From the NCBI RefSeq assembly GCF_054482525.1, contig NZ_CM137006.1: DNA of 64,000 nt; one strand, given 5' to 3'. Shown in pieces: positions 1-6,618 of this stretch. The notes beneath the pieces are model-generated. The model did not search any database, was not told where the DNA came from, and saw only the letters and a program-made list of their open reading frames with translations. The translations under genes and the position numbers were made by a program. The number at the start of each line of letters is the position of its first letter. The first letter of the stretch is position 1.

Positions 1-2179
1 ATGGCCGTTAAAGCCTCCGGGCGTTTTGTCCCTCCGTCAGCATTTGCCGCAGGCACCGGTAAGGCGTTTACCGGTGCTTATGCATGGAACGCGCCACGCG
101 AGGCTGTCGGGCGCGAAAGACCCCTTACACGTGACGAGATGCGTCAGGTGCAAGGTGTTTTATCCACGATTAACCGCCTGCCTTACTTTTTGCGCTCGCT
201 GTTTACGTCACGCTATGACTACATCCGGCGCAATAAAAGCCCGGTGCACGGGTTTTATTTTCTCACATCCACTTTTCAGCGTCGTTTATGGCCGCGCATT
301 GAGCGTGTGAATCAGCGCCATGAAATGAACACCGACGCGTCGTTGCTGTTTCTGGCAGAGCGTGACCATTATGCGCGTCTGCCGGGGATGAATGACAAGG
401 AGCTGAAAAAGTTTGCCGCCCGTATCTCATCGCAGCTTTTCATGATGTATGAGGAACTCTGCGATGCCTGGGTGGATGCGCATGGCGAAAAAGAATCGCT
501 GTTTACGGATGAGGCGCAGGCTCACCTCTATGGTCATGTTGCTGGTGCTGCACGTGCTTTCAATATTTCCCCGCTCTACTGGAAAAAATACCGTAAAGGG
601 CAGATGACCACGAGGCAGGCATATTCTGCCATTGCCCGTCTGTTTAACGATGAGTGGTGGACCCATCAGCTTAAAGGCCAGCGTATGCGCTGGCATGAGG
701 CGTTACTGATTGCTGTCGGGGAGGTCAATAAAGACCGTTCTCCTTATGCTAGTAAACATGCCATTCGTGATGTGCGTGCACGCCGCCAGGCAAATCTGGA
801 ATTTCTTAAATCGTGTGATCTCGAAAACAGGGAAACCGGCGAGCGCATCGACCTTATCAGTAAGGTGATGGGCAGTATTTCTAATCCTGAAATTCGCCGG
901 ATGGAGCTGATGAACACCATTGCCGGTATTGAGCGTTACGCCGCAGCAGAGGGTGATGTGGGGATGTTTATCACGCTGACCGCGCCGTCAAAGTATCACC
1001 CGACACGTCAGGTCAGAAAAGGCGAAAGTAAAACCGTCCAGCTAAATCACGGCTGGAACGATGAGGCATTTAATCCAAAGGATGCGCAGCGTTATCTCTG
1101 CCGTATCTGGAGCCTGATGCGCACGGCATTCAAGGATAATGATTTACAGGTCTACGGTTTGCGTGTCGTCGAGCCACACCACGACGGAACGCCGCACTGG
1201 CATATGATGCTTTTTTGTAATCCGCGCCAGCGTAACCAGATTATCGAAATCATGCGTCGCTATGCGCTCAAAGAGGATGGCGATGAAAGAGGAGCCGCGC
1301 GAAACCGTTTTCAGGCAAAACACCTTAACCGGGGCGGTGCTGCGGGGTATATCGCGAAATACATCTCAAAAAACATCGACGGCTATGCACTGGATGGTCA
1401 GCTCGATAACGATACCGGCAGGCCGCTGAAAGACACTGCTGCGGCTGTTACCGCATGGGCGTCAACGTGGCGCATCCCGCAATTTAAAACGGTTGGTCTG
1501 CCGACAATGGGGGCTTACCGTGAACTACGCAAATTGCCGCGCGGCGTCAGCATTGCTGATGAGTTTGACGAGCGCGTCGAGGCTGCACGCGCCGCCGCAG
1601 ACAGTGGTGATTTTGCGTTGTATATCAGCGCGCAGGGTGGGGCAAATGTCCCGCGCGATTGTCAGACTGTCAGAGTCGCCCGTAGCCCGTCGGATGACGT
1701 TAACGAGTACGAGGAAGAGGTCGAGAGGGTGGTCGGCATTTACGCGCCGCATCTCGGCGCGCGTCATATTCATATCACCAGAACGACGGACTGGCGCATT
1801 GTGCCGAAAGTTCCGGTCGTTGAGCCTTTGACTTTAAAAAGCGGCATCGCCGCGCCTCGGAGTCCTGTCAATAACTGTGGAAAGCTCACCGGTGGTGATA
1901 CTTCGTTACCGGCTCCCACACCTTCTGAGCACGCCGCAGCAGTGCTTAATCTGGTTGATGACGGTGTTATCGAATGGAATGACCCGGAGGTCGTGAGGGC
2001 GCTCAGGGGCGCATTAAAACACGGGCTGAGAACGCCAAATCGTCAGCAAAGAAACAGAAGCCCGTTAAAACCGAATGAAATAGCGCCATCGGCCAGGCTG
2101 ACCCGGTCGGAACGAATGCAAATTACCCGTATCCGCGTTGACCTTGCTCAGAACGGTATCAGGCCGCAGCGATGGGAGC
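1..2179 (+). pseudogene. A: P2-like replication initiation protein gpA (rolling-circle HUH endonuclease), 3' end interrupted by IS3 after codon 726
   Basis: Translation begins MAVKASGRFVPPSAF and contains HUH motif PHWHMMLF and tyrosine motif GYIAKYISK; the provided ORF (1-2217) reads 12 codons into IS3 before stopping. Start at position 1 assumed from recalled P2 gpA N-terminus. Confidence 0.88.
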
Positions 2180-2244
2180 TGATCTTACCCAGCAATAGTG
2201 GACACGCGGCTAAGTGAGTAAACTCTCAGTCAGAGGTGACTCAC

Positions 2245-2544
2245 ATGACAAAAACAGTATCAACCAGTAAAAAACCCCGTAAACAGCATTCGCCTGAATT
2301 TCGCAGTGAAGCCCTGAAGCTTGCTGAACGCATCGGTGTTACTGCCGCAGCCCGTGAACTCAGCCTGTATGAATCACAACTCTACAACTGGCGCAGTAAA
2401 CAGCAAAATCAGCAGACGTCTTCTGAACGTGAACTGGAGATGTCTACCGAGATTGCACGTCTCAAACGCCAGCTGGCAGAACGGGATGAAGAGCTGGCTA
2501 TCCTCCAAAAGGCCGCGACATACTTCGCGAAGCGCCTGAAATGA
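2245..2544 (+). CDS. insE: IS3 transposase OrfA (InsE-like, 99 aa)
   Basis: [31 protein letters not shown]... helix-turn-helix/leucine-zipper OrfA of IS3; the provided ORF starts 3 codons upstream. Confidence 0.92.
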
Positions 2545-3407
2545 AGTATGTCTTTATTGAAAAACATCAGGCTGAGTTCAGCATCAAAGCAATGTGCCGC
2601 GTGCTCCGGGTGGCCCGCAGCGGCTGGTATACGTGGTGTCAGCGGCGGACAAGGATAAGCACGCGTCAGCAGTTCCGCCAACACTGCGACAGCGTTGTCC
2701 TCGCGGCTTTTACCCGGTCAAAACAGCGTTACGGTGCCCCACGCCTGACGGATGAACTGCGTGCTCAGGGTTACCCCTTTAACGTAAAAACCGTGGCGGC
2801 AAGCCTGCGCCGTCAGGGACTGAGGGCAAAGGCCTCCCGGAAGTTCAGCCCGGTCAGCTACCGCGCACACGGCCTGCCTGTGTCAGAAAATCTGTTGGAG
2901 CAGGATTTTTACGCCAGTGGCCCGAACCAGAAGTGGGCAGGAGACATCACGTACTTACGTACAGATGAAGGCTGGCTGTATCTGGCAGTGGTCATTGACC
3001 TGTGGTCACGTGCCGTTATTGGCTGGTCAATGTCGCCACGCATGACGGCGCAACTGGCCTGCGATGCCCTGCAGATGGCGCTGTGGCGGCGTAAGAGGCC
3101 CCGGAACGTTATCGTTCACACGGACCGTGGAGGCCAGTACTGTTCAGCAGATTATCAGGCGCAACTGAAGCGGCATAATCTGCGTGGAAGTATGAGCGCA
3201 AAAGGTTGCTGCTACGATAATGCCTGCGTGGAAAGCTTCTTTCATTCGCTGAAAGTGGAATGTATCCATGGAGAACACTTTATCAGCCGGGAAATAATGC
3301 GGGCAACGGTGTTTAATTATATCGAATGTGATTACAATCGGTGGCGGCGGCACAGTTGGTGTGGCGGCCTCAGTCCGGAACAATTTGAAAACAAGAACCT
3401 CGCTTAG
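2541..3407 (+). CDS. insF: IS3 transposase OrfB (InsF-like, 288 aa, DDE integrase domain)
   Basis: 288-aa ORF overlapping orfA by ATGA; contains HTDRGGQY...[14 protein letters not shown]-type motifs; expected to be expressed as an OrfAB fusion by -1 frameshift. Confidence 0.92.
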
Positions 3408-3440
3408 GCCTGTGTCCATATTACGTGGGTAGGATCAAGC

Positions 3441-3541
3441 TTGAGGTGCTGGCGCGTGGGGCAACGGTAAGCTATTGTGGGGAAAAATTTACGTATCCGG
3501 TCGCTGATGAGGGGGCGGGATTTGTAGTATGTAAATGGTGA
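3441..3541 (+). pseudogene. A: Displaced 3' remnant of gene A (last ~34 codons) downstream of IS3
   Basis: Joining 2179 to 3441 (removing IS3 and one TSD copy) continues the A frame as LEVLARGATVSYCGEKFTYPVADEGAGFVVCKW-stop at 3539-3541, giving ~760 aa, the expected gpA length. Confidence 0.6.
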
Positions 3542-3791
3542 AGGTAAGATGGGTTTTTGTCTGTAACGCATTGTTTTATATGGTTATATTTGATTTTTTG
3601 TAACGTGTGTTCATGTTTTCTTTGCTATGATTCATACTACTGCTATAGATGGCTAAAGATATAGGTTGTTGCTTAAATGTATATAGATAATTAAACGCCT
3701 TAATTTTTGATGAGATGTGTCATAAAGTGGAGTCTGTATGGCATAATTTTATGGGGCATGACATTTATACCATTCTTAAAAAGGAGATTAT

Positions 3792-5459
3792 ATGCTGATA
3801 ACTTTCTCAGGACAAAATTATAAGGCATACGAGAGTTTTAAGTTGTCTTTAAAGCCATTGACAATATTATTAGGGGCAAATAGTTGTGGGAAAAGTGCAT
3901 TAATTAACTCTTTGTTGATGTTTTCTCAGTCTGTTGATTCAATGTCATTGTCTGATTCTGCTTTAAGGTTGAATGGGCCTAAAGTTGGGATGGGAGAAGC
4001 ATTAAATATAATAAAAAATAAAGATGACTCCAAAACACTTAGTTTTAGTTTTGATTTTTCTGATAATACAGTGGTTAAAAATGGCATTGATACACTGAGG
4101 AGAGAAACTTTAGAATCATTTGCTATGATTATGCGATTCACAGTGCAAACGGTGAAAAATAATGACGCTTTGGTTACGAAAGCCAATGATTTAATAAATG
4201 AGGCTTCGAATGCGATCGTTAACTTTGACGAATTTGAGGAAGCTGAGTTAAAGGTTATCGCTGATAAGTTATGTCAATTACTTTTGCTTTTTAGGGAGGC
4301 GGGTGATAATGTCACATTTAGTCGTGCGACCTCAGAAAATTTACGCAAATTTATATATGAATGTCCATTAAAGAGAATAAAGGATTGTCTAACTAAAGTT
4401 ATTTCCATTTCAGGAAATAAATTGTCGGCTTCTAAGATAAGCTATGATTTCAAATATGATAAAAATAAAGGGGTGATAAAAGTTTCGAGGCTTGTTCTTT
4501 TAAATAAGAATGATGAAAAGATAGTTGAGCTATTACCAAAGAAGAATAATGTCGTTGTATTATCAGATGTTATCCCTCAAGAAGTGTTTAGAGGATGTCA
4601 GTCAGATATCTTAGAAATCATCAATCCTTATTCGCTGGGGCTGTTCCCTGTCAATAATGGGCGTGGTTTTTATGTTTTTTTTGGTAACTCTTATAATCCT
4701 GTTGTTAATTTTTTATCACATGTTGTTTCTTTGGGTGTATTAATGCTTTCAAAAATGTTTGATGGTGAAAATGTTAATCACGTCAGCCCATTGAGAGCAT
4801 TTCCTCAGCGATATTATCTATTAGACAAAACAGTCAATCATGCGCAGTTAAATTCTGCCGATGGATCTGAGTTAGCGGAGATCTTGAAGAAAAATACAAA
4901 AATAACAGAAAATATAAATCTTCTTCTGGCTGAATTTAATTTGGCTGTTGATATAGTTAAAGTTAATGACATAATTCATAAAATTGTTATAAACCAAGAT
5001 GCTGTTAATTTAGAGTTGACAGATGTGGGGTTTGGAATATCACAAGTATTGCCTGTCTTGGTTCAAGCTTATTTGTCACCAAAGGGTTCGATTACAATAA
5101 TAGAACAACCAGAAATACATTTGCATCCTAAAATGCAGGCATGGTTAACGGACGCATTAATTAAAATATCTATGCAAGAAAAGAAAGTATTTATTATTGA
5201 AACCCATAGCGATGCTTTAGTTAGACGAATTAGATTAAGAATTGTTGATGAATCGAGTGAACTTACAGAGGATCATGTTGCAATCTACCATCTTGAGCGC
5301 GATGAAGAGGGAACATCAACATTGCTGAATAGGGTGGCTGTAAATTCTGATGGAGATATCACATGGCCAAATGAATTTATGGATGTTGAGATTCAGGATA
5401 CAATTAGAATACAGGAGTTAAAGATACAGAAAATAATGAACTCAAAGGGGGTTCATTGA
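3792..5459 (+). CDS. ABC-type (AAA_15/AAA_21-like) ATPase, 555 aa; first gene of cargo operon in the P2 A-cos accessory slot; candidate defence-system ATPase
   Basis: Walker A GANSCGKS at aa 28-35 (nt 3873-3896); Walker B/D-loop ITIIEQPEIHLHP at aa 434-446 (nt 5091-5129); H-loop IIETHS; ~400-aa insert between Walker A and B; AAGGAG RBS 6 nt upstream; AT-rich codon usage unlike flanking phage genes. Confidence 0.75.
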   Translation: MLITFSGQNYKAYESFKLSLKPLTILLGANSCGKSALINSLLMFSQSVDSMSLSDSALRLNGPKVGMGEALNIIKNKDDSKTLSFSFDFSDNTVVKNGIDTLRRETLESFAMIMRFTVQTVKNNDALVTKANDLINEASNAIVNFDEFEEAELKVIADKLCQLLLLFREAGDNVTFSRATSENLRKFIYECPLKRIKDCLTKVISISGNKLSASKISYDFKYDKNKGVIKVSRLVLLNKNDEKIVELLPKKNNVVVLSDVIPQEVFRGCQSDILEIINPYSLGLFPVNNGRGFYVFFGNSYNPVVNFLSHVVSLGVLMLSKMFDGENVNHVSPLRAFPQRYYLLDKTVNHAQLNSADGSELAEILKKNTKITENINLLLAEFNLAVDIVKVNDIIHKIVINQDAVNLELTDVGFGISQVLPVLVQAYLSPKGSITIIEQPEIHLHPKMQAWLTDALIKISMQEKKVFIIETHSDALVRRIRLRIVDESSELTEDHVAIYHLERDEEGTSTLLNRVAVNSDGDITWPNEFMDVEIQDTIRIQELKIQKIMNSKGVH

Positions 5460-5460
5460 C

Positions 5461-6462
5461 ATGTATTGTGCAGTGTGTTTGTGTCCTGATTTTGTTGCGG
5501 CTAATATTTCTGATATTAATTTATTTAGTGGTTTTTTTATTGGAACCATTGTTAATGGTGAAAATCAGTTGATTTTAGATGCTGATGAAAAAATCCGTTT
5601 GGGCTATTTGAAATCTTGTAAAAATAACAAGGATTCTTTTTATCTGCTTCAGAAATGGGAGGCTGAATTATCTAAAGCTTCTTCAGGTAAAATATTGCTT
5701 GCACCAGTGAGTAATAGTACTGATGATATTAAGGATATAGTTGTTTGTGCAGTTGCTAACGCAGCTACCACCTTTGATAAACATATTGTGGTATTAGACA
5801 ATAATAGTTACTCTGGATATGTTGATGAATTAATTAGGCAAAGAGTTAATTTGTTAAATCTTAATAGTATAAGTTTAATATCAAAGGAGGATAGGGTGCA
5901 GCGTCCTTTGAATTTTATAAAGTTTGATAGCGATTTGTCTTGGGTGCTTCAAAGACTGGGGCGACGCTCTGCTAAAGGATATGGCGAAGATGATTTTAAT
6001 GATTTTATACGAGATATGTTATTAGCTAAAAATTATGAGGTAAAAGATCAAACTCGAGAAGGAGAGTCTCAATCGGGGAAAAAAGCCGGTGAGTTAGATC
6101 TTGTTATTGAAGATAGAGGAGAACTGTTTGCTATAATAGAAGCCTTGATTTTAAACTCTTTAGATCAAGCTAACATATTAAAGCATTATTCAAAGTTAAT
6201 TGATAACTATAATCCTATTCATGTCAAAAGGTTGTTTTTAATTGCTTATTATACAGGTGCAAAATTCGATGCCTGGTGTGAAAGATATATTGAGTATCTA
6301 AAGGGGATTACTTCGGTAGATATTGGTGTGGAATCTCATCAGATAGTTGAGGTTAAAGAAGTGGATACCCCGTACATAGGCTTAAGAAAAATTGAACATC
6401 ATTTTAGATATGCGGGGGAGCACTATTTTTGTATCCATTATGCAGTCAAAATGGCTCGGTGA
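5461..6462 (+). CDS. Hypothetical protein, 333 aa; partner of the ABC ATPase (translationally coupled); candidate effector of unknown fold
   Basis: ATG 1 nt after the ATPase stop (TGA-c-ATG); AT-rich; Cys cluster CAVCLC at N-terminus; acidic stretch GELDLVIEDRGELFAIIEAL; no motif I can assign confidently. Confidence 0.65.
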   Translation: MYCAVCLCPDFVAANISDINLFSGFFIGTIVNGENQLILDADEKIRLGYLKSCKNNKDSFYLLQKWEAELSKASSGKILLAPVSNSTDDIKDIVVCAVANAATTFDKHIVVLDNNSYSGYVDELIRQRVNLLNLNSISLISKEDRVQRPLNFIKFDSDLSWVLQRLGRRSAKGYGEDDFNDFIRDMLLAKNYEVKDQTREGESQSGKKAGELDLVIEDRGELFAIIEALILNSLDQANILKHYSKLIDNYNPIHVKRLFLIAYYTGAKFDAWCERYIEYLKGITSVDIGVESHQIVEVKEVDTPYIGLRKIEHHFRYAGEHYFCIHYAVKMAR

Positions 6463-6473
6463 TGTTTAAGATG

Positions 6474-6499
6474 AATGCACCTATAGGGTGCATCATTTT
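6474..6499 (+). terminator. Putative intrinsic terminator of the cargo operon
   Basis: Short hairpin tgcacc-tata-gggtgca followed by tcatttt immediately after the second cargo gene. Confidence 0.35.
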
Positions 6500-6599: not shown

Positions 6600-6618
6600 G
6601 GCGAGGCGGGGAAAGCAC
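6600..6618. other. cos: P2 cos site (19-nt cohesive-end sequence)
   Basis: GGCGAGGCGGGGAAAGCAC matches the P2 cohesive end as I recall it, located between the accessory slot and the portal gene Q as in P2. Confidence 0.8.

Follow-up and report, generated by a model that had tools for sequence, protein, structure and literature searches.

The window analysed here, a 64,000-nucleotide stretch of contig NZ_CM137006.1 (NCBI RefSeq assembly GCF_054482525.1), opens with a P2-like prophage that carries two adjacent genes on the + strand, the open reading frames (ORFs) ORF555 (3792..5459) and ORF333 (5461..6462). This pair is probably a two-gene anti-phage cassette, in which ORF555 would act as the ATP-binding cassette (ABC) ATPase that senses or regulates and ORF333 as the nuclease effector; judged by analogy, it most likely represents a variant within the HEC-03/Menshen type of anti-phage systems. 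The kind of system (an ABC ATPase with a PIN-type partner, as in HEC-03, and related to NsnBC of Menshen) is already known, and the cassette itself has been catalogued. What is new with respect to HEC-03 and Menshen is the greatly expanded Insert 1 of the ATPase (defined below), the composite PIN-like and PD-(D/E)XK-like putative effector, and residence in a P2 hotspot.

ORF555 encodes a 555-residue protein, with an ATG start and an AGGAG ribosome-binding site upstream. The protein is truly an ABC-fold ATPase and belongs to the AAA_15 (OLD-type ABC) group, which is associated with defence. It matches AAA_15 in Pfam (1.8e-23), and its AlphaFold2 (AF2) model (predicted local distance difference test score, pLDDT, 82; predicted template modelling score, pTM, 0.81) has the features of an ABC fold, including the core sheet, the H-loop, and an N-terminal hairpin that Insert 1 extends. 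The Walker A motif GANSCGKS is located at residues 28-35 (G28, G33, K34, and S35 are invariant), the Walker B stretch ITIIEQPEIHLHP at residues 434-446 (IIEQPE at 436-441), and the H-loop IIETHS at residues 468-473 (H472). The motif positions, the Pfam match, and the model all bear out an earlier sequence-only reading of this DNA, which had placed the three motifs in an ABC ATPase. That reading missed the replacement of the Walker B glutamate by glutamine, as well as the coupled partner ORF333.

Where a canonical Walker B motif carries the catalytic glutamate, ORF555 has E438-Q439, a pair that is invariant across 47 homologues (down to 39% identity). The LSGGQ signature is replaced by a degenerate G413-F414-G415-I-S-Q, of which GFG is likewise invariant in the 47 homologues, and the equivalent of the Q-loop is SPLRAFPQRYY at residues 332-342. 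Q439 occupies the position of E277 in Ts OLD, which has E276-E277. In canonical ABC ATPases, the catalytic base sits at this second glutamate position of Walker B, and engineered glutamate-to-glutamine ABC mutants bind ATP and hydrolyse it poorly. Considering the natural Q439 and the behaviour of such mutants, ORF555 is therefore likely a binder or switch, not a motor. As read from these motifs, the main role of ATP would probably be that of a binding latch, turned over slowly or not at all, and not that of a fuel. The natural glutamine at the catalytic site thus bears on the question posed for the HEC systems, namely whether ATP binding or ATP hydrolysis is what matters.

The 82 residues that remain after the H-loop form two beta strands and one helix (531-551) in the AF2 model, in agreement with the short tail without a TOPRIM domain described in the sequence-only reading. 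Conservation in the tail is limited to G521, D522, W525, P526, F529, and D531, which constitute a clade motif, G..WP..F.D, and the tail aligns with that of the Menshen ATPase NsnB. The DGD triplet that the sequence-only reading had pointed out is indeed present (SDGDITW, residues 519-525), but its first D is not conserved and the triplet belongs to the tail motif, not to a TOPRIM domain. Neither a TOPRIM nor another nuclease domain was identified in ORF555 by the Pfam scan or in the AF2 secondary structure, and a TOPRIM domain in the tail was ruled out by the secondary structure, the lack of DxD conservation, and the lack of matches to hidden Markov models (HMMs). An ATPase-only sensor or scaffold subunit is a fair reading of ORF555, because it lacks a nuclease domain and the putative nuclease resides on a separate downstream protein.

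Among HMMs of defence families, ORF555 matches NsnB (1.9e-52), the HEC-03 ATPase (7.7e-42), and PDC-M55A (4.1e-41) best, followed by weaker matches to AriA (1e-27) and GajA/Old (~1e-10). The NsnB match reaches model position 338 of 345, and the HEC-03 ATPase model, PDLC04148, matches in two stretches, the best of which covers residues 395-543. Pfam DUF3696 is not reported for ORF555 and was recorded only weakly or faintly on those of its relatives that were looked up in detail. The nearest kin are therefore Menshen NsnB and the HEC-03 ATPase, instead of the OLD/Gabija/Septu/PARIS ATPases to which the protein had initially been likened. It is extremely unlikely that the pair is a member of OLD, Gabija, or PARIS, in which the ATPase would work with a TOPRIM nuclease. 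The weak matches to the AriA, GajA, and Old ATPase domains, the finding of Ts OLD at 1.9e-6 in a PDB sequence search, and the DGD triplet in the tail would be in its favour, but ORF555 has no TOPRIM, the DGD is not conserved as DxD, and ORF333 is predicted to fold as a PIN-like plus a PD-(D/E)XK-like domain, with no match to DUF4435.

HEC-03 (Hma-embedded candidate 03; Payne et al.) consists of an ABC ATPase and a PIN protein and protects E. coli from phage, for which both genes are required (bioRxiv 10.1101/2024.01.29.577857). As in HEC-03, the window holds a two-gene operon with the ATPase first, a close partner that opens with a PIN-fold domain, and no NsnA-like gene. The resemblance extends to motifs in one HEC-03 locus (L036), which has a Walker B of the same EQ type and shares with ORF555 EQPEIHLH, GFGISQVLP, and the WP..F tail motif; this locus qualifies as genuine HEC-03 by its partner protein, which the HEC-03 PIN model matches at 1.2e-26. 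HEC-03 pairs its ATPase with a VapC-like PIN protein of 159-179 residues. ORF333 is different: it does not match the HEC-03 PIN model, has a single invariant acidic residue in its PIN-like domain, and carries an extra PD-(D/E)XK-like C-domain. ORF555 is also ~95-100 residues longer than the HEC-03 ATPase, with the excess in Insert 1. The component names differ between sources: in PADLOC-DB, the PIN protein is HEC-03A and the ATPase HEC-03B (PDLC04147 and PDLC04148), whereas the preprint reverses the names (HEC-03A is the ATPase).

Li et al. (2025, PMC12065111) describe a set of deviations from canonical ABC ATPases in NsnB of Menshen (Millman et al., 2022): Walker B has Glu in place of Asp and has lost the catalytic Glu, the signature is GxG, and the Q-loop is of an arginine type. 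All of these recur in ORF555, together with the conserved C-terminal tail, and ORF333 resembles NsnC in combining an inactive PIN-like N-domain with a shuffled nuclease C-domain. However, the ORF555 locus lacks NsnA, its Walker B reads EQ where that of NsnB reads EN, and ORF555 is ~180 residues longer than NsnB. The PD-(D/E)XK-like effector type of ORF333 is missing from the list of 15 NsnC-C families (PMC12065111), and ORF333 has no sequence match to any NsnC model. The pair also resembles PARIS (AriA/AriB) and Septu (PtuA/PtuB), in which an oligomer of an ABC ATPase holds a separate nuclease that is released or activated on a trigger, but the partners in these systems are DUF4435/TOPRIM (AriB) or HNH (PtuB) proteins, not PIN-like plus PD-(D/E)XK ones.

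ORF555 is distinguished within its clade by the length of the region between Walker A and Walker B. SMC and Rad50 proteins have a coiled coil that emerges after the Q-loop. The helical dimerisation domain of Ts OLD is likewise inserted after the Q-loop (PMC7049728). Following the nomenclature quoted in the HEC preprint (bioRxiv 10.1101/2024.01.29.577857), we refer to the region between helix H1 (residues 34-49) and strand S2 (328-331) as Insert 1, and to that between S2 and the signature helix (414-428) as Insert 2. In ORF555, Insert 1 comprises 278 residues by the model (~50-327) and Insert 2 (332-413) is short, with ~80 residues. Insert 1 contains the usual hairpin-extending beta strands (residues 83-89 and four at 215-257) and a predicted compact helical module at 93-211, in which AF2 places two short helices (182-203) after three of 19-27 residues (93-173); helices resume beyond the strands at 215-257. 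The module lies N-terminal to the Q-loop equivalent (332-342). The intervening region, which had been supposed to be helical, is thus only partly so, and it is not notably Lys/Asn/Asp-rich: the residues that predominate at 95-320 are L, V, N, K, and S. Likewise, the ~400-residue insertion proposed in the sequence-only reading holds as a long span, but ~240 residues from Walker A to Walker B is the clade norm, judged from NsnB of Vibrio phages, and the lineage-specific excess in ORF555 is therefore only ~170-200 residues.

By clade alignment, Insert 1 measures ~35 residues in NsnB, ~130 in the HEC-03 ATPase, ~235 in ORF555, and ~330 in a Klebsiella P2-like phage protein, and in these sequences it is the length-variable element of the NsnB/HEC-03/ORF555 clade. 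It also includes the fast-evolving part of the protein, as residues 91-330 (coding positions 4062..4781, + strand) show a mean pairwise identity of 0.27 in the ORF555 family, compared with 0.67 in the ATPase core. The ratio of nonsynonymous to synonymous substitution rates (dN/dS) in residues 91-330 is 0.05-0.27 by allele pair (Nei-Gojobori), which indicates purifying selection; positive selection on the insert was considered and is unsupported by these values. A profile of residues 88-214 returned nothing below E=0.01 among PDB sequences or in Pfam.

A coiled-coil or SMC-like insert was ruled out, since the extra helices are in Insert 1 and are short. Neither a coiled coil past the Q-loop, a hinge, nor a zinc hook of the SMC/Rad50 type is present in ORF555, in which the longest helices have 19-27 residues. 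The SMC/Rad50-like layout suggested by the sequence-only reading is thus contradicted by a compact helical module before the Q-loop, and the AF2 model has no coiled-coil or dimerisation insert at either the SMC/Rad50 or the OLD position. OLD differs further: P2 Old and the class 1 OLD proteins (Ts OLD, PDB 6p74) have a fused TOPRIM domain, a helical dimerisation domain after the Q-loop, and, in IIEEPE, a retained second glutamate, none of which is found in ORF555. That the two genes form a phage DNA-metabolism pair, with a Rad50/SbcC-like ATPase and a nuclease for recombination, repair, or replication of the prophage, is very unlikely for related reasons. It is true that the best structural matches of ORF555 are Rad50 and SMC heads, and that the annotation of a sister gene in Pseudomonas phage 62-2 reads "DNA double-strand break repair rad50 ATPase". 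However, ORF555 has no coiled coil, hinge, or zinc hook, with an Insert 2 of only ~80 residues, and its partner is not a phosphoesterase of the Mre11/SbcD type. Moreover, most P2-like prophages hold other cargo at this site, the cassette is found in only 5 of 5,426 complete E. coli genomes, and, judged from GC content, it is a moron and not a core gene.

ORF333 is predicted by AF2 to have two domains (pLDDT 86) and matches neither Pfam nor PADLOC models, including those of NsnC and the HEC-03 PIN protein. In a fold search, its N-domain (residues 1-145) matched PIN folds, including catalytically inactive ones (Nmd4, SMG5/6, and VapC were among the matches). D40 is the sole invariant acidic residue of this domain, which, according to the model, appears to be a degenerate PIN-like fold. 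When searched alone against PADLOC, the N-domain gave no match even at E<=10, and no DUF4435 match was found in ORF333 and 44 homologues. The C-domain (residues ~146-333; 5896-6459, + strand) is PD-(D/E)XK-like, with fold matches to the restriction enzymes BamHI (8.2), BstYI (7.9), BglII (7.7), and SwaI, as well as to McrC and HamA. Its conserved residues are E176, D196-Q197, D213, E227, H242, and K245, all of which are kept at 93-100% in 87 proteins of other architectures, a pattern of conservation that, at the level of sequence, looks as expected of an active site.

An exhaustive profile search recovered 1,110 cluster representatives of the C-domain at E<=1e-3 and shows it to be a mobile module. 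It is located at the C-termini of proteins of ~190 to ~1,700 residues, with fusions that include LRR-Roc-COR proteins, one NACHT/EruA-like protein, and one LmuA-like protein; Pfam has no match across the module either in ORF333 or in the two of these fusions that were scanned. Stand-alone copies are also present in a type I restriction-modification locus (L060), in a conjugative element (L061 and L062), and beside an nSTAND3 gene (L063). The gene upstream of the copy in the restriction-modification locus was checked as a hidden ATPase and is not one.

The two genes form a unit. The ATG of ORF333 lies 1 nucleotide past the ORF555 stop codon, and the genes are translationally coupled. An ORF333 homologue is directly downstream of the ATPase in all 14 viral loci whose ATPase is at least 38% identical, and the same gene pair occurs in Pseudomonas, Shewanella, and Serratia chromosomes among unrelated neighbours. 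In addition, the divergence of ORF555 is correlated with that of ORF333 (r=0.92-0.98), and close E. coli alleles of the cassette have dN/dS values of 0.01-0.19, indicating purifying selection on both genes. By contrast with this constancy, ATPases that share the architecture but are slightly more distant (L026 and L027) are paired with a different partner of 165-170 residues, and partner swapping therefore occurs.

At intact loci, no NsnA gene (ParB-DUF262 plus ParBDB) was found, nor was there one in three unrelated genomic contexts; in loci free of insertion sequences (ISs), gene A is followed by a ~240-bp gap and then ORF555, with no ORF in between. A DGxQR (NsnA-like) gene is upstream in none of 50 loci with an EQ Walker B (ATPases of 429-648 residues) and in all 4 loci with an EN Walker B (L010, L065, L066, and L067; ATPases of 373-383 residues), a contrast that rests on few EN cases, a further scan for EN-type phage loci having yielded only three, and on loci whose sampling the search patterns had biased. 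These observations bear on whether the pair is a degraded three-gene Menshen system, a non-functional remnant that has lost NsnA. Such a history could be read into the best PADLOC match of ORF555 (NsnB), the NsnC architecture of its partner (an inactive PIN plus an effector domain), and the IS3 element just upstream in the window. We regard it as highly improbable, however, given the IS-free loci with only ~240 bp between gene A and ORF555, the distribution of the DGxQR gene (0/50 versus 4/4), the purifying selection on both genes, and the retention of the two-gene form from Escherichia to Pseudomonas and Shewanella.

Sister two-gene cassettes are present in Klebsiella phage Kp4845-1 (L009, 2564-5510), with an EQ-type ATPase of 648 residues and a partner of 338, and in the Pseudomonas filamentous phage 62-2 (L064, 2595-5231), with an EQ-type ATPase of 532 residues and a partner of 344. 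The two 62-2 genes carry the annotations "rad50 ATPase" and "putative OLD family nuclease". Neither partner has detectable similarity to ORF333 or is recognised by PADLOC, and no sequence link was found between ORF333 and NsnC or either of these two phage partners (hhalign, PADLOC).

The genomic location of the pair is also a known defence hotspot. Outside the region of interest, the prophage at the opening of the window shares 96-97% identity with known Peduoviruses, and the ORF555-ORF333 cassette fills the hotspot between gene A and cos/Q. The segment with the two co-directional ORFs has 33% GC, compared with ~55% in the flanks. It directly adjoins cos, because an exact match to the 19-mer of the P2 cohesive end, GGCGAGGCGGGGAAAGCAC (6600..6618, + strand), is located 138 bp past the ORF333 stop codon; the portal gene Q follows beyond cos on the opposite strand. 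The gene A to Q hotspot of P2-like prophages is a reservoir of anti-phage systems (Rousset et al., 2022, PMC9122126), and PARIS occurs in both P4 and P2 hotspots. The exact cassette was catalogued in the same study as P2-hotspot system #69, "AAA_15/AAA_21", with 62 occurrences (Rousset et al., 2022, Table S5B). Both ORFs also have deposited entries, as hypothetical ORF555 and ORF333, in phage P2-EC5 (strain ECOR5). The cassette is carried by only 5 of 5,426 complete E. coli genomes, and literature searches with the ORF names and accession numbers returned nothing specific on it.

Residence in a prophage also raises the question of whether the pair is a toxin-antitoxin or addiction module that stabilises the prophage, with ORF333 as the nuclease toxin, ORF555 as the antitoxin, and no dedicated sensing of phage. 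The tight coupling of the genes and the nuclease-like second gene are consistent with this, Pfam annotates AAA_21/AAA_15 ATPases as putative components of AbiEii-type toxin-antitoxin systems, and the strain with HEC-03 was toxic on induction (bioRxiv 10.1101/2024.01.29.577857). However, the same cassette resides in ordinary chromosomal sites outside prophages, its relatives are embedded in defence loci, phage protection by HEC-03 required both genes, and deletion of either PARIS gene is non-toxic. We therefore consider an addiction module unlikely, while toxin-antitoxin activity and defence by abortive infection are not mutually exclusive.

The analogy to HEC-03, Menshen NsnB-NsnC, PARIS, and Septu suggests a likely mechanism for the putative anti-phage cassette. 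ATP-bound ORF555 heads would engage as dimers or tetramers, and the C-terminal tails of ORF555 would hold the PIN-like N-domain of ORF333 in a complex that keeps the PD-(D/E)XK domain silent, similar to AlphaFold 3 models of NsnB4-NsnC2 in which the inactive PIN domain lies between the ATPase tails (PMC12065111). A phage-derived trigger may then be sensed, probably via the helical module of Insert 1 and/or the variable PIN-like domain, which would shift the state of the ATPase and release or activate the nuclease. Cleavage of phage and/or host nucleic acid would halt the infection. In this scheme, the data show the folds, motifs, operon coupling, co-occurrence, hotspot location, and purifying selection, and the complex, the trigger, the role of ATP, the nuclease activity, and the defence phenotype are inferred. 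A more specific scheme, which we put forward tentatively as a possibility, is an NsnA-independent branch of Menshen/HEC-03 in which the Insert 1 module would replace sensing by NsnA, the hydrolysis-impaired E-to-Q head would be an ATP-binding latch, and the PD-(D/E)XK-like domain would be a "death domain" shared with LRR-Roc-COR, NACHT, and Lamassu-type proteins.

Several observations weigh against an active defence cassette of this design. ORF333 does not match any PADLOC model, those of NsnC and the HEC-03 PIN protein included, and its PD-(D/E)XK domain has no lysine two residues past E227, for which K245 on the next helix presumably stands in. The glutamine at the catalytic site could mean that ATP is not used canonically at all. 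Averaged over the variable segments, dN/dS is well below 1, and an arms race there is therefore not demonstrated. Finally, system #69 is absent from the table of cloned and tested systems (Rousset et al., 2022).

Should the cassette prove active, it would add a subtype to the phage defences that combine an ABC ATPase with an effector, with the effector side outside the PADLOC models; if it is inactive, it is ordinary cargo of the P2 hotspot. The variation in Insert 1 length (~35 residues with NsnA and ~130-330 without) provides a testable determinant of sensing. The C-domain of ORF333, in turn, represents a widespread nuclease-like domain without a Pfam model that is reused by ROCO-like, NACHT, and Lamassu-like proteins.

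Upstream of the cassette, P2 gene A, which encodes the replication endonuclease, extends to ~2180, where it is broken by an IS3 copy (orfA/orfB; 2181-3437, + strand) in its 3' end; this element is context only and lies outside the system. In the region 3438..3791 (+ strand), the 3' remnant of gene A gives way to the AT-rich leader of the cassette with its ribosome-binding site, and a simple scan of this region detected no strong sigma-70 consensus on the + strand. A terminator-like hairpin (6475..6493, + strand) is located 13 nucleotides 3' of the ORF333 stop codon. The prophage in the window is probably replication-defective, yet its defence cassette is intact. The closest complete genome is that of E. 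coli ARS-C301 (L003), with 99.6% identity over the cassette, and the flanks of the IS3 copy join up in this strain, with a ~4 bp duplication at the junction. In the annotation of ARS-C301, gene A (1826-4104) carries a frameshift and a DUF5405 gene (1038-1340) an internal stop, so that this prophage also looks decayed although the cassette is intact.

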